Below, in pieces: positions 5,581 through 41,542 of a stretch of 43,270 nucleotides of DNA. Position 1 is the first letter of the stretch. Each line of letters opens with the position of its first letter. The DNA is from a virus. Taxonomy: Duplodnaviria; Caudoviricetes. Below the pieces are notes generated by a model. It was not told the DNA's origin and did not search any database. It saw only the letters and a list, made by a program, of their open reading frames with translations. Where the stretch lies: IMG/VR virus record IMGVR_UViG_3300036046_000012, positions 1 through 43,270 of that record; one strand, written 5' to 3'. The position numbers were made by a program, and so were the translations under genes.

Positions 5581-6547
5581 CTGCCAATCTATGATTTAAT
5601 TCTTTCCGTTCTCCCTTAATGACCACTGTGAAGTCCTTGCACATCTGAAAGATGCGGGTCCCAAGCGCTTCGTCAACGTCCACCAGTTCATCCACCGTGA
5701 GCTCAGAGGATATCAGGATAGGCAAGTGGTTCAAATAACGGTAGTTAATCACTGCGTACATCTGCTCTACCGTCCACTCCGTAGCCCTTGGAACGCCCTT
5801 CGTCGGCTTGAACAGGTCATCAATGAAAAGGACATCCACTTTCTTCATCCGTTCAAGCTTTTCTTCAAGTTTGCTGAAGTCATCCTTCAAATCGTTGAAT
5901 CCCTCAACATAGGGGAAGTAAAGCACCGATGTTTCCTTGCTGATCAGGTTATTCGCTATCGCAGTAAGTAAGTGTGTCTTCCCTGATCCCGGCTGCCCGA
6001 GAAGAGATATGCTATTGCAGCGTTCTTTCCGTATGCCGGCAAATTCCTTGAAATAATTCAAGGCGCAATTATAGGCATCTTCAATCACCTGAGGTTTGCT
6101 CTTCGTTACAAAAGAGCGGAAGCCGAGCTTTTTAAATTCCTCTGTGATTTCACTTGCCTTCAAGAGATTTTTCACCCTTGCTTGCTTAATGCAATCACAT
6201 TGTTTGGAATAGGTATCTTTCCATTCCCAAGCTTTATCCGGGCCACATACTTTCCCGGTCAGCAAATCATCTTCAGGAACCATGCTCGCAGGGACAGATA
6301 CCGTTTGTTCTTCACCGTTAATGAATCTGGTCTCTTCTATCCACTCTGTGTCTTTATGGACTCGGTAAAGGAGAAGCTTCAAATCCTTGCATTCAGGACA
6401 ATCATAAGTTTTTGTTTCTGCCGATCCAGCCGACCTGTCCTCCAGTGATTGAGTCTTCTGCATTTCGTGTAACCTTTGCATGACCTTTTCGAGGCTGTTT
6501 GTTGAAGTTTTCACTGGCTGCCTCCTTCCTGAATTTTTCCTGTTCAT
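5564..6547 (-). CDS. DnaC/IstB-like helicase loader ATPase (true start may be 6481)
   Basis: CPEC..CDC zinc site; Walker A GQPGSGKT; Walker B LFIDDL; INYRY. Confidence 0.9.
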   Translation of the reverse strand: MNRKNSGRRQPVKTSTNSLEKVMQRLHEMQKTQSLEDRSAGSAETKTYDCPECKDLKLLLYRVHKDTEWIEETRFINGEEQTVSVPASMVPEDDLLTGKVCGPDKAWEWKDTYSKQCDCIKQARVKNLLKASEITEEFKKLGFRSFVTKSKPQVIEDAYNCALNYFKEFAGIRKERCNSISLLGQPGSGKTHLLTAIANNLISKETSVLYFPYVEGFNDLKDDFSKLEEKLERMKKVDVLFIDDLFKPTKGVPRATEWTVEQMYAVINYRYLNHLPILISSELTVDELVDVDEALGTRIFQMCKDFTVVIKGERKELNHRLAGAPGV

Positions 6548-13170: not shown

Positions 13171-13242
13171 ATATTTTTAGAACATTTTTCTTTAAAAACC
13201 CTGGTGTATGGGGATTTTAACAGTTGGATAGAGGTGAAATGT

Positions 13243-14790
13243 ATGTACAGACCAAAAGGATTAGATGTCGATATTTATTTAAGAAAAAGCCGTAAAGACA
13301 TTGAAGCAGAAAAGTCTGCAGCCGATGATTCTTCAGATCGGGATACGCTCTCGAAGCACAGAAACCAGTTGTTCGCCATCGCGAAGAAGGAAGAGCATAA
13401 TATTATAAATATTCATGAAGAGGTTGTATCCGGCGAAACAATCTCCGAACGTCCCGAGATTCAGAACCTATTGAGGAGAGTAGAATCGGGGGTGGTTGAG
13501 GCTGTTCTGATAATGGATCTTGACCGGTTGGGTCGTGGGGATATGTTGGATCAGGGACTTCTTGACCGCGCTTTCCGCTATTCAGGAACCAAGCTGATAA
13601 CTCCTACTGAATACTATGACCCGGAAGATGATTCATGGGAATTGGTATTCGGGGTAAAATCCCTGGTTGCTCGTCAGGAGCTTAAAGCTATCACCAGACG
13701 TATGCAGGGCGGGAGACGTAATTCAGTCACGGAAGGGAAATCCGTCTCTAAGAAGCCGCCTTATGGCTATATGAGAGACAAGAATCTAAGACTTTACCCT
13801 GATCCGGATACGGCGTGGGTCGTAAAGAAAATGTTTGAAATGATGAAGAACGGCCATGGCAGAAACGCAATTGCCGATGAACTGGACAAGCTTGGCATCA
13901 AACCATCTTTTAAGGATACCTGGTCCCCTTCTACCATAACCGCCATCATCAAAAATGAAGTGTACCTTGGGCATATGATATGGGGAAAAATGAAGCATAC
14001 CAAAAAACATGGCAAGTACATCCGGACGAAAATGCCAAAAGAATCATGGATTATTAAAGAAAATGCACATGAAGCAATTGTCTCTCAGGAATTATGGGAT
14101 GCTGCTAACCGTGCTCACTCTGGACGATTCCGCCCATCAACAATTGAAACAAAAAAACTCTCCAATCCCCTTGCAGGAATTTTGAAGTGCGAGGTGTGCG
14201 GATACACCATGTTATTTCAGCCTCGAAAAGACAGACCCAACCCAGTTATTAGATGTACACAATCCAGTTGTAAAGGAATTCAGAAAGGATCCCTCCTACC
14301 ATTAGTGGAAGAAAGGATTCTTGAAAGTTTAAAAAGGTATATCGAGGATTTCTTTATAGAGGGAGATGGACCTGAAAAGTCAGATGCTAAGTCGGTTATT
14401 CCTTTAAAGGAAAAAGCGATAGAAAAGATGCAAAAAGAACTTGATGAATTGTCCGCGCAGAAAAATAACATGCATGACCTACTTGAAAGAGGAGTCTATA
14501 GCATTGATACTTTCATGGCCAGACAGCAGAATGTTACCGAAAGGATGAATGTGCTGCAAGATAATATTCAGGATCTTCAAAGAGATATCTCCAGAGAGCG
14601 AATGCAGGAGAAAAACATTCATGAATTTATTCCCAAACTAAAAAGTGTGTTGGAGGCATATCGCCAGACAGACGATATTGAAAAGAAAAATCAATTACTA
14701 AAATCAATCTTAGAAAAAGTAACCTATCTAAGAAAACAGGATTGGAAACAGAAAGACCAATTTAAAATTCAACTCTTTCCAAAAATATAG
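13243..14790 (+). CDS. Large serine integrase (resolvase + recombinase + zinc ribbon)
   Basis: IYLRKS catalytic Ser; SG..ERPE; DLDRLGR; PPYGY; CEVCG..C..C; coiled coil. Confidence 0.95.
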   Translation: MYRPKGLDVDIYLRKSRKDIEAEKSAADDSSDRDTLSKHRNQLFAIAKKEEHNIINIHEEVVSGETISERPEIQNLLRRVESGVVEAVLIMDLDRLGRGDMLDQGLLDRAFRYSGTKLITPTEYYDPEDDSWELVFGVKSLVARQELKAITRRMQGGRRNSVTEGKSVSKKPPYGYMRDKNLRLYPDPDTAWVVKKMFEMMKNGHGRNAIADELDKLGIKPSFKDTWSPSTITAIIKNEVYLGHMIWGKMKHTKKHGKYIRTKMPKESWIIKENAHEAIVSQELWDAANRAHSGRFRPSTIETKKLSNPLAGILKCEVCGYTMLFQPRKDRPNPVIRCTQSSCKGIQKGSLLPLVEERILESLKRYIEDFFIEGDGPEKSDAKSVIPLKEKAIEKMQKELDELSAQKNNMHDLLERGVYSIDTFMARQQNVTERMNVLQDNIQDLQRDISRERMQEKNIHEFIPKLKSVLEAYRQTDDIEKKNQLLKSILEKVTYLRKQDWKQKDQFKIQLFPKI

Positions 14791-21450: not shown

Positions 21451-21477
21451 AAAGAAAAAGGACCTTTTCGGGTCCTA
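21451..21477 (-). terminator. Terminator after tyrosine recombinase
   Basis: AGGACC-CGAAAA-GGTCCT-TTTTCTTTT. Confidence 0.6.
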
Positions 21478-22317
21478 AAAATACTTCCTATACAATTCTC
21501 GTCGGCGCTCGCCACTAAGCTGAGCATATATGCGAGTTGTCTCGATTTTCTGATGACCGAGCAATGAACTTACAATTTCCATAGGTGCCCCACGATCAAG
21601 CAAGTGTGTGGCCATAGAATGTCGGAAACGGTGCGGGTAAATATTGACGTTCACTTCTGACCGTTTTGCAATACGCTTAACAACGTACCGTAACTGTGGA
21701 ACGGAAGACCGGGTAAATGGCTTTCTCTCTAAGATGAATAGTGCAGGGTCATTGTCGGTACGCTTTTTTAAGTATTCTTTAAGCCATAGGTACGTCTTTA
21801 TGTCAAAATACACTTCGCGCTCTTTGTTTCCTTTACCAAGCACGATGATGGATTTGCTCTCCCAGTTAATGTGGTTCCGATTCATGCCATGCACTTCACC
21901 TATCCGGCATCCGGTGGCATACAGAAGTGAGATAAGTGCCTTCTCCATTGGACCTTTACATGATTCGCGCAGCATCTCCATATCTTCTTCAGCAATAAAC
22001 TTTGGCACCCTTTTTCCCTGTTTGGGCTCCTTAAGCTTAGCTGCCATGTTCATATTAGTGATGCCTTCCTCATGTGCCCAGCGGAATAACGATCTTAAAA
22101 ATCGGACCCGGTGACCGATTGTTGAAGCTTTCAGCCTGTCCATATCCTTTGCGAGATAGCCTTTCAAGGCGACAAATGTTACTTCATTGATGCTAATGTC
22201 TCCGAAATGTCGAATCAACATGTTCGCTTGAATCTTGTACCCTTTCAGTGTGTGGATTGAGAATCCCTCGATTTTCTATTCGTATTCGTACATCGACCAA
22301 ATTTCTGATAATAACAT
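21475..22317 (-). pseudogene. XerD-like tyrosine recombinase with in-frame TAG at codon 14 (22276-22278); a restart at ATG 22221 is possible
   Basis: RBS AAGGGGAG + ATG 22317; MLLSEIWSMYEYE*KIEGFS...; catalytic TGCR, GKGNKER, HRFRH, LGH, Y intact. Confidence 0.8.
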
Positions 22318-34868: not shown

Positions 34869-35186
34869 CTACTCCCCAAGAATTAAGCTGATTAGTTCCT
34901 TTTTGTTATCATCTGATTTGTACTCGATGTTTTCATCATCCAAGAAAGCTTTCAAATCATCATTTTTCACTTTCTCCAGTTCCTCACGCGTCATCATGAA
35001 GAAGTCTAATGAACCGTCTGTTCTCTCGATAGACAAGGACCCAGGATTCTCTTCCTTAGCTTCTGCCATTTTATAACCTTGTGCTTTGTAAACAACATCA
35101 AAAGCCCGCCGTGTTACCTTGCGAGCTCTCCCTTTAGGATCAACAACATCAAGAATGGTGTCTGGAGACTTCATATATTTGGTCAT
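34869..35186 (-). CDS. Small head-associated protein with HeH/Rho-N-like C-terminal domain
   Basis: KNDDLKAFLDDENIEY..KKELISLI. Confidence 0.7.
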   Translation of the reverse strand: MTKYMKSPDTILDVVDPKGRARKVTRRAFDVVYKAQGYKMAEAKEENPGSLSIERTDGSLDFFMMTREELEKVKNDDLKAFLDDENIEYKSDDNKKELISLILGE

Positions 35187-35215
35187 GGTATCAAATCCAC
35201 CCTTTCTGAGATTAA

Positions 35216-36166
35216 TTAAGGCGTTACGTCAGGAGTCAGTGCAGCAAAGGCATCATCAGCAAGCGTCATAAATCCGACTTGTTGAGTCACGCGTAGGGCG
35301 AACATGTCACGTTCGAACAGGTTGATTGGCTCTCCATCAGATCCCAGGACAGTTGTCAATGTAGCATCTTCTGAAATCTTGTACTCCATCCCTTGTGGAA
35401 TGCCGTAGCGTGTATAATCCCAATCAGCAGCCATCAGAAGGGCTTTCGTGTAATCCCAAGACTTTGAATCCACATAACCAATTGGAAGTCCCAGTGCCTG
35501 CTGTGTGGCTCCTGCTTTGGCGTCATTGAAGATTGGCAGTCCTGATTGATCTTTCGTACCACGGAGCTTTTGACGGAAGCGACGAGTTGTTGTGAAGCCG
35601 TCAGCATCCTTATCAGCATCTTCAATAAGTGCCATGATGCCGTTCAGCTCATCATAAAGATTTCCTGCTTCGTCATGTGCAATAGTATTGCCGGCAGCAG
35701 TTGCTCTTTCAAATACTGAAATACCAGTTCCGAAAGGGGAAGCTGTTCCGTATAGAGCAGCCTGGTCAAACTTGATCGCAAAAGCTTCAGCGATAGCCGG
35801 GCGCATTTGAGCGAAGAAATCTGAAACAGAGTAACGCAGAAATTCTTTAGAAACCGGGATGATAACACCAAGTTTCTTAGATTTCATTGTTGCTGTTAAC
35901 CATGTGGCCTTAGAAGTTTGGATCTTCTCTCCTTCTCCCACCCAGTAAGCTCCCGGTCCTGATGCAAGGTACGTGAATTTCTTCTCCGGCTTCGTCATTG
36001 GCTCATACTTAGCCAGCTGCACAACAGCCGATTGAGTCATGAAGTCCTTTAGTACCAGTGTCCCTTGTTCTTGCGGCACTGCACCTGTTACCGCATCCTG
36101 TAGCAATACATTTGCCGGGTTAAACGTTTCAAACATACGAATGTTAACTGTGAGTAATTTTGTCAT
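35216..36166 (-). CDS. Major capsid protein
   Basis: FNPANV; GAYWVGEGEKI; KKLGVIIPVSKE; NLFERDMFALR. Confidence 0.93.
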   Translation of the reverse strand: MTKLLTVNIRMFETFNPANVLLQDAVTGAVPQEQGTLVLKDFMTQSAVVQLAKYEPMTKPEKKFTYLASGPGAYWVGEGEKIQTSKATWLTATMKSKKLGVIIPVSKEFLRYSVSDFFAQMRPAIAEAFAIKFDQAALYGTASPFGTGISVFERATAAGNTIAHDEAGNLYDELNGIMALIEDADKDADGFTTTRRFRQKLRGTKDQSGLPIFNDAKAGATQQALGLPIGYVDSKSWDYTKALLMAADWDYTRYGIPQGMEYKISEDATLTTVLGSDGEPINLFERDMFALRVTQQVGFMTLADDAFAALTPDVTP

Positions 36167-36180
36167 TGAATAATTTCCTC

Positions 36181-36807
36181 CTATTTTCGGATACTTGCTT
36201 GTTCAGCAAGAGCTCCGATGTCAATTGTTCCGGTATTGCTACCGCCGCCAGTTGATACGATCCGGCCATTCTCTTTAAACTTAACGTCCACGGCTGCTTG
36301 AACAGCTTTTGTGTACTCTTCTTCAAACTTTTTAAGATTATCGAGTGTGCCAGCTTCGTCTTCCCCAATAAAAAAGTCAATAACGCCATCCGGTAGGCTC
36401 TTTTCCTTAGCCACCTTCAGTGCTTTATTGACAAGTCCTTCCCGGATACGGGCCTTTTCTGCAATTTCAATCTTATTAGTCAACTCTTCAATCTTGATTT
36501 GCTCCGGCGACTTTGTTGGATTGCGCTTATTTACCTCTTCAGTAATAAGATTTTCAAGATTGTTCGTTTTCCATGTTTCAAGTGATTTGGTGAAATGGGA
36601 ATCTAACCTTGGCTGCAGGAGCTTTTTACCCTCTTCTGTATCCAAGAACCCTTTCACCTTATCAGCTGATACGGCAGAAAGTTCTCCCAGATATGTTTTT
36701 ACAGCTTCTTGCTCCTTATTTTCGGCTAGAAACTTCTTTACTGCATCTAATGTGATTGCAGCTTCAAACTGCTTGATATTGACTGGCAATAACACTTTTT
36801 TAAACAT
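36181..36807 (-). CDS. Capsid scaffolding protein (DUF4355-like)
   Basis: ATG 36807 after AGGAGG; helical and charged; precedes capsid gene. Confidence 0.85.
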   Translation of the reverse strand: MFKKVLLPVNIKQFEAAITLDAVKKFLAENKEQEAVKTYLGELSAVSADKVKGFLDTEEGKKLLQPRLDSHFTKSLETWKTNNLENLITEEVNKRNPTKSPEQIKIEELTNKIEIAEKARIREGLVNKALKVAKEKSLPDGVIDFFIGEDEAGTLDNLKKFEEEYTKAVQAAVDVKFKENGRIVSTGGGSNTGTIDIGALAEQASIRK

Positions 36808-36897
36808 TTCTTTTTTCCTCCTAGCCATGCAGTTCGAGCCTGCATGTCTGTTTTTAGGTATAACAAAGCGCCTGACAACTCTCATATCAGGCGCGGA

Positions 36898-37077
36898 CTA
36901 TCCTTGCTTTATTGTTACCTGCAGATCTTCAGGGTACTGAGTAGACAATTCTTGTAAAAACCGTACAGATGACTGCAGTATAGTTGAAACTGATGCACAT
37001 ACAACGCTTTGTGCGTGACCGGTGGCTTCGATGATCATGTGGCCGTCTTCTCCCACAGTGACTTCAATTTTAGTCAA
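36898..37077 (-). CDS. prp: Miniature Prp-family (peptidase C108) cysteine protease, 59 aa; absent from ORF track
   Basis: TTG after AGGAGGGG; MTKIEVTVGEDGHMIIEATGHAQSVVCASVSTILQSSVRFLQELSTQYPEDLQVTIKQG carries GHA...VCASVS and QYP motifs. Confidence 0.8.
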   Translation of the reverse strand: MTKIEVTVGEDGHMIIEATGHAQSVVCASVSTILQSSVRFLQELSTQYPEDLQVTIKQG

Positions 37078-37136
37078 GATTTCCCCTCCTACTCAATGCC
37101 ATTTAACGCAATGGCTGCGAGATGTTAGATCACCTC

Positions 37137-38174
37137 CTATTTGAGAGCGTTCTGTTTGCCGTTATACCACTCGTCGTAGCTTACGAAGGGTATAACTCTA
37201 CTCGGCGCCTGAATCTCTTTCTGCGCCTTCTTCAGTGCCTGTTTATAGGTAAGTCCGAGGTCCGCCATGTACTGGTCAATCTTATCAGCCATTTTTTGCT
37301 GATACTTATCATCCATATAGTCGCGCTCTCTGCGGTATTCAGGAACCTTTCCGTTCACCAGTAGGATTTTCACGCACCGACACTGGATATCCATTGATGC
37401 AATTCCCCACATTCGTGGAGCTTTTGATTTCCATGCCTTGTAATGAAAATAACCATTCTTATCGGTCTTTTTCCCGTCTAGTTCCTGGTGGGCCTCTCTT
37501 ACACGGTGATCAAGCATGCTCATCCAAATTGCGCTCATCTCTGCATACTCGGATGCCTTTTCCATTACTTTTTCTGCAGCAATGGATCTCGCCCGGCCAA
37601 CTTCCGTCCGAGCTACTAATCTTGCTTTCTTCTGACTGAATCCCACAGCCTTCTCGATGCGTTTGGCCATAGTGGCATAACCTTCTCCGGCAATCATGCC
37701 CTGAGCAAGCTCAATTTTTATCTTGCGGACAATTTCATTGCGATGCTGCTCCATTACTTTAGGAAGCGTTAATTCAGCAATAGGATTAAGCAGTGCTTCA
37801 GTGATTACACCTTTGCTCGGAATATCAAAACCCATATCTGTGCCGTCTGCGATTCCCATCTCGATGATGTAGGCCGTCATAAGGTATTTGCTCACGAATT
37901 GGTTTTCTGTCTGCGCCTGAATATCCTTAATGACTTTCCTATAGTCTTCAGTCAGGGAGTCACCGATGAGTTTCATTTCCTTCTGAAACCTGTTGAATTT
38001 ATTCAACTCTGTGAAGGACAGCTCCCCGTTCTTTTCGTACTTCCTGTACATTCTGGCCACTTGATTCAAGATTGTTTTCAAGCGCTTAGCAAAAACGATT
38101 TCCAATGCGACTTCTGCAGTTGCTAAGAGCTTATCAAGTATTTCTTCAATCTCCAGTTGGTCCATCGTCATCAC
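37137..38174 (-). CDS. Minor head protein (SPP1 gp7/Mu gpF-like)
   Basis: RLVARTEVGR; W..LDHRVR..HQELDG; IQCRC. Confidence 0.9.
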   Translation of the reverse strand: MMTMDQLEIEEILDKLLATAEVALEIVFAKRLKTILNQVARMYRKYEKNGELSFTELNKFNRFQKEMKLIGDSLTEDYRKVIKDIQAQTENQFVSKYLMTAYIIEMGIADGTDMGFDIPSKGVITEALLNPIAELTLPKVMEQHRNEIVRKIKIELAQGMIAGEGYATMAKRIEKAVGFSQKKARLVARTEVGRARSIAAEKVMEKASEYAEMSAIWMSMLDHRVREAHQELDGKKTDKNGYFHYKAWKSKAPRMWGIASMDIQCRCVKILLVNGKVPEYRRERDYMDDKYQQKMADKIDQYMADLGLTYKQALKKAQKEIQAPSRVIPFVSYDEWYNGKQNALK

Positions 38175-39534
38175 CTGCTATCGGTTCTAACTTTGCACCG
38201 AGGCGGAACTCATCGTCTTCCATCTCTTTAAGCTCAAAGTCCACATCATCCACGAAAGACAGCTGTGAAAGCCTTGTACGTTCGCTGACATGCCCTTTGA
38301 GTGATTGAGTGGTTTGAGCCTCTTGGAGCAGATCGGCAGGCAAATTGCGCTTAAAGGTGAACCACACTTTCAAGTAATCTTCCTTATTCGCTTTGCTTCG
38401 TTTATTCCAGGCAGAGAATAGAATCTTAAACTGATAGCGGAGAGCAGCAGTCATTTTGCGCTCCATGGTTATGCACTTATTCTCTAAAGCGAGTATCTTG
38501 TATTTCATGGCCACTCCGGTAACCGTGCCGCCAAAAGCCTCATCAGAGAAATTAACTGACTTCGAAAACCTGAGGATATTTTCCTCCAGGCGGTCAAGAT
38601 GATGCTCAATTAACAAGTCATTAATATCTTTTGTCAGATACTTAACATCATCTTTTTCATCGTACAGCTCGAACATCCCTGTTTCTTTTAATTTGGCAAG
38701 TGTTTCTTCATCGGCCCCTAAGCCTTTTAAGATTAAGTACGCCAGGCGGTACTGTTCAATCTCGTTGCTTGCATCCGACAGCGTCCGGTCATATGCATCT
38801 ATGAGCTTGAGCACTTTTTCCGCATCACCCATGAGCTCCTTGTTGTTCGAAAGTCCGAATAAAGGGCATCCTTCAAACAAATGTGGCTTCACTTCATCCA
38901 GCGTAAAGGCTGAGCTGTCCTTTGTGCTGTAGTAATGGACCTTATCATCGTCATAAAACTCTGCCTTCAGCTGCCCGTTGTACGTCTCATAATACCTCAG
39001 GGCATATTCAGGCTCGTGGATGTGATGATCCGTGAAGAAGATGACCTCCCAGGGATTTATGCCGACAATGCGTTCGTTTCCTTCTTTGTCGATGTAAGCC
39101 AATCGCGCTGCCTGTCCACAGATGGCTGCCATTTTGCCCCATTCACTATCTTCATCAGCAACATGGTTTCGTAGGTTGAATTCATCAATCAGCTGTTTTA
39201 AGGATGATGTGGTACCTGGTTCTCTCTGGTCATCAAGTTCATAGGTGATGGGATTCCCGAACATGTAGCCCACCTTTGTATCAACGATGTCCGAATCAAA
39301 GGAGTTATTGAGGGTATTATTCACTTTATTATCAAGGCGAATCATTCTCCCTGTTTCAAAGTCCTCATAGTCGATTGCCTTTCTGCTTAGAACAGGAACC
39401 CCATCAACTGCAACTTTGTAACGCTTGTATAAATTTCTCATCCGGTCTGCATCATTTTTGTGAGCTGCTATGATCTCAGCTATCAATTCAGGCGTAATCC
39501 CGGTTTCTCTAATGATTTGCAGGAACTTAATCAC
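38146..39534 (-). CDS. Portal protein, SPP1 gp6 family
   Basis: IVDTKVGYMFGNPITY; LIDAYDRTLSD; GVAMKYK; FKRNLP. Confidence 0.95.
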   Translation of the reverse strand: MIKFLQIIRETGITPELIAEIIAAHKNDADRMRNLYKRYKVAVDGVPVLSRKAIDYEDFETGRMIRLDNKVNNTLNNSFDSDIVDTKVGYMFGNPITYELDDQREPGTTSSLKQLIDEFNLRNHVADEDSEWGKMAAICGQAARLAYIDKEGNERIVGINPWEVIFFTDHHIHEPEYALRYYETYNGQLKAEFYDDDKVHYYSTKDSSAFTLDEVKPHLFEGCPLFGLSNNKELMGDAEKVLKLIDAYDRTLSDASNEIEQYRLAYLILKGLGADEETLAKLKETGMFELYDEKDDVKYLTKDINDLLIEHHLDRLEENILRFSKSVNFSDEAFGGTVTGVAMKYKILALENKCITMERKMTAALRYQFKILFSAWNKRSKANKEDYLKVWFTFKRNLPADLLQEAQTTQSLKGHVSERTRLSQLSFVDDVDFELKEMEDDEFRLGAKLEPIAGDDDGPTGD

Positions 39535-39546
39535 GTTGTCTCACCT

Positions 39547-40746
39547 CTATCCTGTCTTTCTTCGTTTTGGCTTCAGATGGGTGTATATGGCGTACCTGAT
39601 GCTGTCCAATACATCGTCCCATTCTTTAACCGGCTCCCCCGTCTTTGCATTCCAGACGTACATGAAAATCTCTTTCTTGAACCGGTCAACCTTGTCTTTC
39701 ACAACTTTCAATTTGCGCTTCTTGAACAACCTGGCCACTTCCTCGATTCCTGATACGACAGCCTTATCAGCATTTATGGCTCTAATTCCTTCACGTCTGA
39801 AGCGGATAAGATGCTCCGGCCGCGCTGAATCACAATAGAAATTAATGTTTCCGTATCGACTCTTCACACCTTTTGCAACAGTTACCCAGTAATCGATTTC
39901 TTCATGCTGCTTGGAATGCTCTTCCAGGACGTACAGATCACCTTTGTCATCTTCTCCGATGGCAACAATGGAGCCTGGATGCTCATACCCCCAGTCAACA
40001 CCTGCCCAGTAACGAACAAAGTTGAGCTTTTCTGCCTCAGCAGATGAAACGTAATGGGCGCTTTGGTCAAAGTCCTTATAGATAACACCTTCAGCTGCTA
40101 CCCACTGACCTTTAATATCCCGGTCAGTAAACATGCCGGTTGGAGTTGAAGCGACAATACTTTCCACGTATTCAGGATCCAAGAAGATATTATCGTACAA
40201 CGTAAAATGGAACGCTCTGATGTTCAGGCGTCCGCTTTCTAATCTTTGTCCATCCTTGTCAATTAAATCTTCTTTTACAGGATGGCTGGGATTCTCCGGG
40301 TTGGTATCAATAATGATTCTTGAGCCTTTGTAGGAGCAACGGGAAATGACTTCCTTAACAAACATGTCATGGAGTGCTGTTCCCTCGTTCAATAGTGCGC
40401 CAGCTGCTGTAAATCCACGAGCTTTTTTCCAAGCATCAGACGTGGATCCGTCAAAAACATAAATCCTATTTCCGAAAAGGTTAAAAGATTTCTTCAAATC
40501 AAGTTTAATTTCTCGACCGAGTATCTTCTCCATATCATCTAAGATATTACGCCAAATGGATGAATAGGTTGCTCCTCCGATAATAAAAGCGAGCCCCTCG
40601 CCCTCATATTTGGCCACGTGAGCAAGAAATAGCAGTAAGGCAATATGCGTTTTACCTGCACGCTTAGCACCACTTAGAAGGAGTATTTTGGGATCTTCAG
40701 TACGAACGCTTTGAACGACCTCAATCTGCTTTGGAGTTAATTCCAT
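39547..40746 (-). CDS. terL: Terminase large subunit, PBSX family
   Basis: GAKRAGKT; DTNPENPSH; GVDWGYEHP; DDVLDSIRYA. Confidence 0.95.
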   Translation of the reverse strand: MELTPKQIEVVQSVRTEDPKILLLSGAKRAGKTHIALLLFLAHVAKYEGEGLAFIIGGATYSSIWRNILDDMEKILGREIKLDLKKSFNLFGNRIYVFDGSTSDAWKKARGFTAAGALLNEGTALHDMFVKEVISRCSYKGSRIIIDTNPENPSHPVKEDLIDKDGQRLESGRLNIRAFHFTLYDNIFLDPEYVESIVASTPTGMFTDRDIKGQWVAAEGVIYKDFDQSAHYVSSAEAEKLNFVRYWAGVDWGYEHPGSIVAIGEDDKGDLYVLEEHSKQHEEIDYWVTVAKGVKSRYGNINFYCDSARPEHLIRFRREGIRAINADKAVVSGIEEVARLFKKRKLKVVKDKVDRFKKEIFMYVWNAKTGEPVKEWDDVLDSIRYAIYTHLKPKRRKTG

Positions 40747-41542
40747 TGACTAACCCCCTTAAAGCCGCAGCAACATCTTTTTCCTGATTAGTGCCTTCTT
40801 TTATGACTTTTTCCTGAGCAATCTTCAATTTCTCTTGCTCGATTTCCCTTTTAAACTTGTCAGGGAACAGGTCAAAGTATAAGGACAGCTTCTCCAGGGC
40901 CTTCATCTTATCTTCAAGCTTGATAGACACGCCATCTTTCCCCTGTTTCACCTCGGAAATAATGGAACCATCAACATTTGCAGACTCATTGAATTGAACA
41001 TAGTTCACTTCAGCCGTTATCGCGTTACCGTCCTTATCACGGTCAATTTCAATCTGCTTGCGGCCAAAGGACAGGTAATCATTAATGTCACTGAATGCAA
41101 TTTTGATGTACTTATTAAGCACGTCCATTGCATCTATGAACAAGCCTTGAGTCATATCTTTTTTAATGCGCCGGATTTCCTCCGCGATTCTAACATTACC
41201 TAACAGTCTAGGACCCTGCACATGAGCTGTGCCTGCTGAATAACCAGCTTTAATTGCAGATTGAGTAGCATTAAATGATTTCACGTAATAAAGACAGAAA
41301 AGACGCTGTTTTTCATTTAACTCATCCGATTCTATAACCGGCTCTTTTTTAGGAGCAACTTTCTTTTTAGGGGTTGCAACCTTCTTTTTAGTTGCATCCT
41401 TTTGGGTTGCATCCCTCGACCATCCATCACGGCTTTTCCTGCTCTTCAACGTTCCGAGTTTGACATTGTGTTTTTCGGCGAGTGCCTTTAGGGTGATATC
41501 GGTCGTTTCGTATTCAATTCTTATGGCATCCCAATTCATCAC
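40721..41542 (-). CDS. terS: Terminase small subunit with N-terminal HTH
   Basis: LNEKQRLFCLYY..NATQSAIKAGYS; DKMKALEKL. Confidence 0.93.
   Translation of the reverse strand: MMNWDAIRIEYETTDITLKALAEKHNVKLGTLKSRKSRDGWSRDATQKDATKKKVATPKKKVAPKKEPVIESDELNEKQRLFCLYYVKSFNATQSAIKAGYSAGTAHVQGPRLLGNVRIAEEIRRIKKDMTQGLFIDAMDVLNKYIKIAFSDINDYLSFGRKQIEIDRDKDGNAITAEVNYVQFNESANVDGSIISEVKQGKDGVSIKLEDKMKALEKLSLYFDLFPDKFKREIEQEKLKIAQEKVIKEGTNQEKDVAAALRGLVNGINSKAD
41352..41414. repeat. GTTGCA repeats inside terS (candidate pac region)
   Basis: GGAGCAAC, GGTTGCAACC, AGTTGCATCC, GGTTGCATCC separated by T tracts. Confidence 0.4.

Follow-up and report, generated by a model that had tools for sequence, protein, structure and literature searches.

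A 59-residue Prp relative beside scaffold and capsid leaders in a Bacillus-type prophage: a predicted single-repeat maturation protease

The virus record IMGVR_UViG_3300036046_000012 (43,270 bases, completeness rating 99%), which we call the window in its entirety, is a temperate siphovirus, a Bacillus-type prophage, whose head module runs on the minus strand from the small terminase to the capsid gene. Between the genes for a MuF-like minor head protein and the scaffold lies an open reading frame (ORF) for a 59-residue protein, here called mini-Prp, that resembles the cysteine protease Prp. The scaffold and capsid proteins encoded downstream both begin with a short leader. In this study we examine mini-Prp as a single-repeat Prp relative predicted to cut these leaders. 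The features on which the argument draws are as follows.

37137..38174 (-), MuF-like minor head protein, encoded immediately 5' of mini-Prp (PF04233, E 4.4e-19)
37078..37092 (-), ribosome-binding site of the mini-Prp gene, GTAGGAGGGGAAATC then TTG (sequence reading)
36898..37077 (-), mini-Prp gene, 59 residues, TTG start (PF04327 and family motif)
36868..36894 (-), terminator-like hairpin immediately 3' of the mini-Prp stop codon, with 6 G-C pairs in its 10-bp stem, then TTTGTTAT (folding)
36826..36846 (-), 7-bp hairpin with loop GCUCGAA, just 5' of the scaffold ribosome-binding site (11-locus alignment)
36181-36807 (-), whole scaffold ORF, DUF4355 (head module)
36766..36807 (-), scaffold leader MFKKVLLPVNIKQF, 14 residues, predicted cut before Glu15 (family motif)
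36181..36765 (-), mature part of the scaffold, DUF4355 / Gp46-like (PF14265, E 2.7e-22; phrog_172)
35216-36166 (-), whole HK97-type capsid ORF (head module)
36131..36166 (-), capsid leader MTKLLTVNIRMF, 12 residues, predicted cut before Glu13 to give ETFNPANV (family motif)
35216..36130 (-), mature part of the HK97-type major capsid protein (PF05065, E 4.1e-35; phrog_10)

The mini-Prp gene and its single-repeat architecture

A first-pass annotation, made from the letters of the window, had proposed that the 59-residue ORF upstream of the scaffold gene carries the catalytic His and Cys motifs of Prp, and profile searches bore this out. The Pfam family PF04327 (Peptidase_Prp) matches residues 1-49 on profile positions 1-55 of 90 at E 1.2e-5, although the score of 25.9 bits lies just below the gathering score of 27; in the PF04327 search of the virus's own genome the score is 22.8 bits. 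PHROG 4478 'peptidase' matches at E 9.7e-5, comparison with seven full-length Prps by hhalign gives a probability of 97.3% (E 2.2e-11), and a profile search of the PDB returns the Prp structures 1s12, 2idl and 4peo/7kld, with 1s12 the best (E 1.7e-5). Invariant columns across 45 aligned sequences include G20, H21, V26, C27, A28, V30 and S31. The presumed catalytic residues are His21 (codon 37015-37017) and Cys27 (codon 36997-36999, minus strand), and Gly20 and Ser31 complete the Prp family motif; in Staphylococcus aureus Prp, His22 and Cys34 are reported as the catalytic dyad and the mutants G21A and S38A as inactive (PMC9405229). The gene is preceded by a strong ribosome-binding site, with AGGAGG 7 nucleotides 5' of the TTG start, and its end is separated by 90 nucleotides from the scaffold start at 36807.

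A word-indexed protein search gave 44 candidates, all of which matched; they are 48-71 residues long, share 66-97% identity with mini-Prp, and come from Bacillaceae genomes (Metabacillus, Priestia, Cytobacillus, Peribacillus and others) and from metagenomes. When longer proteins were searched, no close relative turned up, whether fused or full-length. For the 16 distinct DNA sequences of the gene (120 pairs), the median proportion of non-synonymous differences (pN) is 0.17 and that of synonymous differences (pS) is 0.78, which is saturated, and the ratio of non-synonymous to synonymous substitution rates (Ka/Ks) has a median of 0.10 and a maximum of 0.28 in the 47 of 120 pairs for which Ks could be computed. 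These comparisons show that mini-Prp is homologous to Prp and under strong purifying selection. Because the size class of the relatives is constant, and synonymous sites are saturated with few protein changes, it is a selected gene of constant small size and not a stump. Two of the sources carry host labels that look like contamination or mislabelling: JAGGQZ010000008.1 (L022), titled Chryseobacterium sp. ISL-80, holds a Bacillaceae-type prophage with a mini-Prp at 78% identity, and homologue P0035, labelled Escherichia coli, sits on a contig of 263 bases.

The Prp family has the topology ββ-α-ββ-α-β (PMC9405229), and mini-Prp matches it in two pieces. Its profile aligns with the Thermotoga maritima Prp (1s12) through residues 16-42 on 11-38 and 33-57 on 66-90, and it matches the full-length phage Prp of locus L089, which has the same capsid family, through residues 4-41 on 22-63 and 41-59 on 102-120. 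When aligned with host and phage full-length Prps (alignment A3), mini-Prp shows two gaps, one of six residues between Gly-His-Ala and Val-Cys, and one of about 38-46 columns that opens at the end of helix 1 and closes at that of helix 2. The His-to-Cys distance is 6 residues, compared to 12 in the host and phage full-length Prps. Taken by halves in hhalign, mini-Prp matches the N-terminal half of Prp with a probability of 97.4% and the C-terminal half with 62.6% (E 7.2e-5), the latter match running through the helix end and the C-terminal strand (LLQSSVRFLQELSxQYPEDLQVTIK). According to the alignments β3, β4 and half of each helix are gone, so mini-Prp does not hold the full ββ-α-ββ-α-β fold. 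Given the family topology, the deletion takes out one ββ-α unit in register and leaves ββ-α-β. The description of the protein as 'half-size' in the first-pass annotation thus holds for a small and conserved form, and fails as far as it implies truncation, since the loss is an internal deletion of one repeat together with a six-residue deletion in the loop.

An AlphaFold2 model of the monomer, with a predicted local distance difference test score (pLDDT) of 93.2, has strands at residues 3-8 and 14-19, a helix at 23-47 and then an extended C-terminal tail. Comparison of the N-half with the C-half of full-length Prp in hhalign gave nothing (probability 0.3%). We also considered a frameshift or read-through into a second half of the protein, and rejected it: the stop lies just 90 nucleotides from the start of the scaffold gene, and the last 19 residues of mini-Prp already match the C-terminal end of full-length Prp.

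Leaders on scaffold and capsid and their link to the gene

The residues that precede Glu on the two proteins, listed above, are those that the first-pass annotation had read. Its statements on host Prp and on phages 80alpha and Cp-1 are likewise in print (PMC9405229, PMC5744158): host Prp is reported to cut ribosomal protein L27 and the 80alpha scaffold and capsid at F/A (PMC5744158, PMC9405229), and the Cp-1 capsid protease is given as the sole other member of clan CR (PMC9405229). A degenerate six-residue leader motif occurs three times in the six frames of the window, at the two N-termini and once antisense. In 200 mononucleotide shuffles the mean was 0.99, and at least three occurrences arose in 13 of 200. 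The motif count alone is within chance, while its occurrence at the start of the proteins from two neighbouring head genes, together with conservation in relatives, is beyond it.

We compared 32 leaders, in which P1 denotes the residue before the presumed cut and P1' the residue after it. P4 Ile and P1 Phe occur in all 32, P5 Asn and P2 Gln each in 30, P8 Leu in 28 and P3 Lys in 26, and P6 is Val in 21 and Leu in 8. At P1' we see Asp in 21, Glu in 5, Ala in 3, Val in 2 and Phe in 1. The first-pass annotation had taken F/E for the hallmark of recognition, and this did not survive the comparison: because P1' is mostly Asp, F/E at the cut is a local detail of the window, and the constant differences from the host site lie instead at P4 (Ile), P2 (Gln) and P3 (Lys).

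The predicted cut coincides with the start of related proteins that have no leader. Leaderless capsids, up to 85% identical, begin M-PTFNPANV, and the window capsid reads …NIRMF/ETFNPANV at the same length; leaderless scaffolds begin MPTLEEVKKFL, and the window scaffold reads …NIKQF/EAAITLDAVKKFL. That leaderless relatives begin at the predicted cut is the strongest indirect evidence that the leader would be removed at this Phe.

Eight viral loci (L002-L009) and nine loci in bacterial genomes hold mini-Prp genes; after merging of repeated fetches they make 17 distinct loci, 16 of them with downstream sequence. In each of these 16 the scaffold and the capsid carry one leader apiece, exactly two in all; L081 and L106 also have both, which brings the count to 18/18 distinct loci (leader LLxVNIKQF). 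A second set was gathered by capsid homology (80 loci fetched, 79 with a capsid ORF), with a Prp gene scored within 3.5 kb. In this set, a NIxQF-type leader stands on both proteins in 10/10 mini-Prp loci, and the two loci with a full-length phage Prp have host-like xLQxF/A leaders on both. Among 67 Prp-less loci, 57 are leaderless on both proteins, 9 have host-like xLQxF/A leaders on one or both and none has the NIxQF type; in the remaining one the capsid is leaderless and no scaffold ORF was called. These counts include related contigs. Earlier it had been proposed that co-diverged leaders are linked to a Prp-derived gene, and the strict co-occurrence with a leader unlike the host L27 site agrees with that.

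In a quick maximum-likelihood tree of 64 distinct mature capsids (identical rows merged; L079, L081, L082 and L087 left out), which is not a finished careful search, the mini-Prp state changes at least 6 times, and 5 of these changes are forced by well-supported branches. The neighbours of mini-Prp loci in this tree are both leaderless and host-type. In L003 and L019 the same mini-Prp and leaders stand with a different capsid family (weak PF25209 match). In these comparisons the mini-Prp gene and the two leaders behave as one cassette. The nine Prp-less loci with host-like leaders on capsid and/or scaffold are L044, L082, L085, L087, L093, L105, L109, L110 and L111; six of them have the leader on only one of the two proteins, and L105 is without a called scaffold ORF. 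By analogy with 80alpha, these loci presumably rely on host Prp.

The host system could be read in five host genomes that carry such prophages. Their L27 begins M(L)LRLDLQFF/ASKKG or MLLKLDLQLF/ASKKG, and directly upstream of it lies a Prp of 110-118 residues with the long loop GHAxFAxxGxD[IL]VCAG; the mini-Prp gene lies between the MuF-like and scaffold genes and not beside the L27 gene. The phage leader and the host site share a register (P8 Leu, a hydrophobic P6, Asn/Asp at P5, Leu/Ile at P4 and Phe at P1). From host site to phage leader, P3 changes from Gln to Lys, P2 from Phe/Leu to Gln and P1' from Ala to Asp/Glu. In the structure of S. aureus Prp with peptide, P3 Gln is reported to bond the loop residues Gly29 and Asp31 (PMC9405229), there is a size limit at P1', and P4 and P6 lie at the dimer interface (PMC9405229, PMC9261936).

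The long form of this L2 loop, with Gly29 and Asp31 reading P3 Gln, is not found in mini-Prp, where the loop is shortened. Five viral contigs (L112, L113, L114, L116 and L118) encode mini-Prps that retain a long His-Cys loop, with leaders of the form …[ND/M][LI/M]Q[RM]F followed by N, S or T. P3 is Gln in 7/7 of their leaders, compared to 2/32 leaders of the short-loop mini-Prp family, a correlation that has few independent lineages behind it. Because the long-loop mini-Prps keep P3 Gln, the single-repeat form and the altered specificity are separable, the changed P3 going with the short loop. Examples of leaders from the long-loop contigs L112-L120 are FNIQRF/S, MNLQRF/N and LNLQMF/N. A metagenome scan for more distant short-loop mini-Prps brought back four loci, with no Prp in any.

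The region between the mini-Prp and scaffold genes, which holds the two hairpins listed at the outset, has an RNA fold z-score of -2.95. Hairpins similar to the terminator-like one lie 3' of the mini-Prp gene in L020 and L024. The 7-bp hairpin was aligned in the window and ten further loci (L005, L007, L018, L020, L021, L022, L024, L025, L026 and L081), where it has a conserved loop GCUCGNA and stands 5-10 nucleotides upstream of the scaffold ribosome-binding site; across the 11 loci there are compensatory changes at 5/7 pairs and 0 broken pairs. Rfam has no family near threshold for the intergenic hairpins. The 7-bp hairpin may help to process or stabilise the highly expressed scaffold-capsid mRNA.

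The remainder of the head module, upstream of the MuF-like gene, is as follows.

38146..39534 (-), SPP1-type portal protein (PF05133, E 7.9e-108)
39547-40746 (-), large terminase (head module)
40721-41542 (-), small terminase (PF03592)

Pfam and PHROG searches of the head block, terminase to capsid, found no other protease family, and the six head-module proteins gave no match to the classical prohead proteases (HK97 gp4 type, ClpP/S49 type). The label 'head maturation protease' of phrog_595 does match the MuF-like protein, for which the best match is 'minor head protein'. Across the record, Pfam finds Cro/CI-type repressors, RecT, RusA, dUTPase, an amidase endolysin and tail genes. Two integration enzymes occur together, a large serine recombinase (13204-14790, plus strand) and a tyrosine-type integrase (21475-22221, minus strand).

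Readings of the mini-Prp and leader pair

Overall, we consider it probable that mini-Prp is a single-repeat Prp relative that cuts the scaffold and capsid leaders (…VNIKQF/E and …VNIRMF/E), likely as a homo-oligomer. Under this reading mini-Prp would be catalytically active, and the cut would fall after the leader Phe, as suggested by the register shared with the L27 and 80alpha sites. The biological form of Prp is a homodimer (PMC9405229, PMC9261936), and two mini-Prp chains may pair to rebuild the two-repeat fold, which fits the single-repeat topology. A complex prediction with two mini-Prp copies and capsid residues 1-40, run without controls, scored 0.00 and gave no answer, and bears neither way. 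The altered P4, P3 and P2 and the shortened L2 loop could also make the mini-Prp and leader pair independent of host Prp. Put together, these steps make up a stronger proposal, which we advance only tentatively: a self-sufficient 59-residue protease of two chains rebuilding the fold, with loss of the L2 loop and a rewritten site (NIKQF/D/E for LQFF/A), insulated from the essential Prp-L27 pair of the host and passed as a mobile cassette between unrelated capsid modules.

Several observations weigh against cutting by mini-Prp. The deletion covers the β3-β4 turn (Asp62-Gly65 in S. aureus Prp), which is reported to hydrogen-bond Gly21, and the L2-loop Asp31, reported as essential in S. aureus Prp, is replaced in mini-Prp by Ser24, three residues ahead of the Cys. 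Structural comparison is of little help: Foldseek of the model against the PDB gave no match at E 0.001 or better, and VIA-align reached only Z 2.0-3.6, on residues 53-106/113 of 2idl, 4peo, 7kld and 7jvs amid unrelated rows, matches that are too weak as proof that Prp halves superpose. Besides the Pfam score below gathering, the NCBIfam Prp equivalogs (NF0111xx) give at best 16.5 bits for NF011132, compared to a cut-off of 133; L031, for comparison, has a host Prp that passes its equivalog with 144 bits against a cut-off of 135. Neither tblastn of mini-Prp nor megablast of positions 35000-39600 found a match in 50,697 phage records, and from the former there is no isolated phage of this subfamily at hand. 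For 80alpha, the scaffold leader is reported as needed for assembly and cleavage of capsid and scaffold as dispensable for viability (PMC5744158), so that a leader need not mean an essential cut. The leader keeps the host-site register and hence might still be cut by host Prp. Finally, the related contigs within the co-occurrence counts and the quick nature of the capsid tree temper the linkage evidence.

The alternative that best survives is that host Prp cuts the leaders and mini-Prp is only an accessory, which for instance pairs with a host chain to retarget it, or damps L27 processing. The shared register speaks for it (P8 Leu, hydrophobic P6, Asn/Asp at P5, Phe at P1), as do the homodimeric state of Prp with substrate P4 and P6 at the dimer interface, the absence from mini-Prp of the β3-β4 turn that stabilises Gly21, and the nine related loci that have host-like leaders and no Prp gene, in the manner of 80alpha, which uses host Prp. 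We nevertheless regard it as unlikely. An adaptor needs no invariant His, Cys, Gly and Ser, and these are kept in 45 sequences; the mini-Prp leaders differ at P3 and P2, which the enzyme reads, and have Asp/Glu at P1', where the S. aureus structure limits size. Moreover, loci with host-like leaders manage without mini-Prp, whereas the NIKQF type never occurs without the gene (0/67).

It is a good deal less probable again that mini-Prp binds the leaders without cutting them and acts on scaffold and capsid as a clamp or a chaperone of assembly. Such a role would suit the heavily reduced enzyme core, and it has a parallel in 80alpha, whose scaffold leader is reported as needed for assembly when its cleavage is not. 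Against it stands the invariance of the catalytic dyad and of the supporting Gly and Ser, and close leaderless relatives that begin at the predicted cut fit removal of the leader better than its retention. That the ORF is a functionless, decaying remnant of a full-length phage Prp gene seems close to refuted and is hardly credible to us, for against its half-usual length, sub-threshold Pfam score and TTG start stand 44 relatives in the same length class, about 40 further clusters with the same architecture, synonymous saturation with a conserved protein, a strong ribosome-binding site and the strict linkage to the leaders.

If mini-Prp is indeed an active leader protease, few known site-specific proteases would be smaller, both of its catalytic residues lying within a chain of 59 residues, and it would be a natural case of a two-repeat enzyme cut down to one repeat. 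The capsid family occurs in three states (leaderless; with a host-type leader; with a private leader and mini-Prp), and would offer a clean system in which to ask why phages use Prp-type leaders. A protease like this, small, with a site of about eight non-prime residues and with D, E, A, V and F all accepted at P1', would also be useful for removing tags.

Comparison with known Prp systems

The mini-Prp form is not peculiar to this phage. An exhaustive search of representative sequences with mini-Prp gave 89 clusters (at 50% identity) at E 0.001 or better. Some 40 of these are 53-85 residues long and match in one stretch; those of 96-125 residues mostly match in two. Five long proteins of 662-1800 residues (P0046, P0064, P0105, P0108 and P0131) have 5-10 repeated stretches that match short parts of the mini-Prp profile, and these matches are probably repeats or low-complexity sequence. 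Mini-Prps are already named in databases, as Prp or 'protease', and NCBI calls the homologues of the window protein 'ribosomal-processing cysteine protease Prp', a name that is probably wrong for such phage genes. Full-text searching of the literature, in which most subscription journals lay outside coverage, turned up no publication on such a Prp, half-size or phage-encoded. A tblastn search with the window mini-Prp found none of the other mini-Prps, including the Kromp type described below.

With S. aureus Prp (MEROPS C108, PDB 4PEO/7KLD), mini-Prp shares the Gly-His…Cys-x-x-x-Ser motif, and with the 80alpha system it shares a leader of 12-14 residues on scaffold and capsid in the same register, with the cut predicted after Phe in the window. 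It differs in length (59 residues compared to 106), having lost one ββ-α repeat and six residues of the L2 loop; in being phage-encoded and not next to rplU and rpmA, whereas S. aureus Prp is encoded by the host; and in its leaders, which have Lys, Gln and Asp/Glu where the S. aureus system has P3 Gln, P2 Phe and P1' Ala. The T. maritima Prp TM1457 (PDB 1S12) is alike in its short L2 loop, with 7 residues from His to Cys compared to 6 in mini-Prp, and a short loop of this kind is reported to hold the dyad in an active pose without substrate (PMC9405229). Unlike mini-Prp, it is a bacterial protein of 94 residues with the full two-repeat fold.

Full-length phage Prps (for example in L088 and L089, which share the capsid family of the window, and in L010-L017) stand where mini-Prp does in the head module, 5' of scaffold and capsid genes whose products both have a cognate leader, and the helix motif VCASVSTL.Q of mini-Prp is closer to theirs than to that of host Prps. 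They differ from mini-Prp in their 95-125 residues, complete ββ-α-ββ-α-β fold, long L2 loop and xLQxF/A-like leaders. Such genes with cognate leaders are common in IMG/VR, confirmed in 504/600 scanned stretches, with about 1,100 estimated in the collection. In three viral contigs (L013-L015) a full-length phage Prp has 102 residues, and the scaffold and capsid leaders read F[ND]LRLL then D, with Leu and not Phe at the presumed P1.

A parallel in form is gene 6 of Streptomyces phage Kromp (L192, MH744420, record 5680-5868), a single-repeat mini-Prp of 62 residues annotated 'protease'. It sits between the scaffold and capsid genes, whose products carry a leader of their own, WF[RQ]L[DT]RH then D, and this shared motif suggests a cut after His. 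Kromp and the other mini-Prps of 53-85 residues resemble the window protein in being single-repeat and in lying between or beside scaffold and capsid genes, and differ from it in hosts, loop lengths and leaders, with mutual identity of 34-50% or less.

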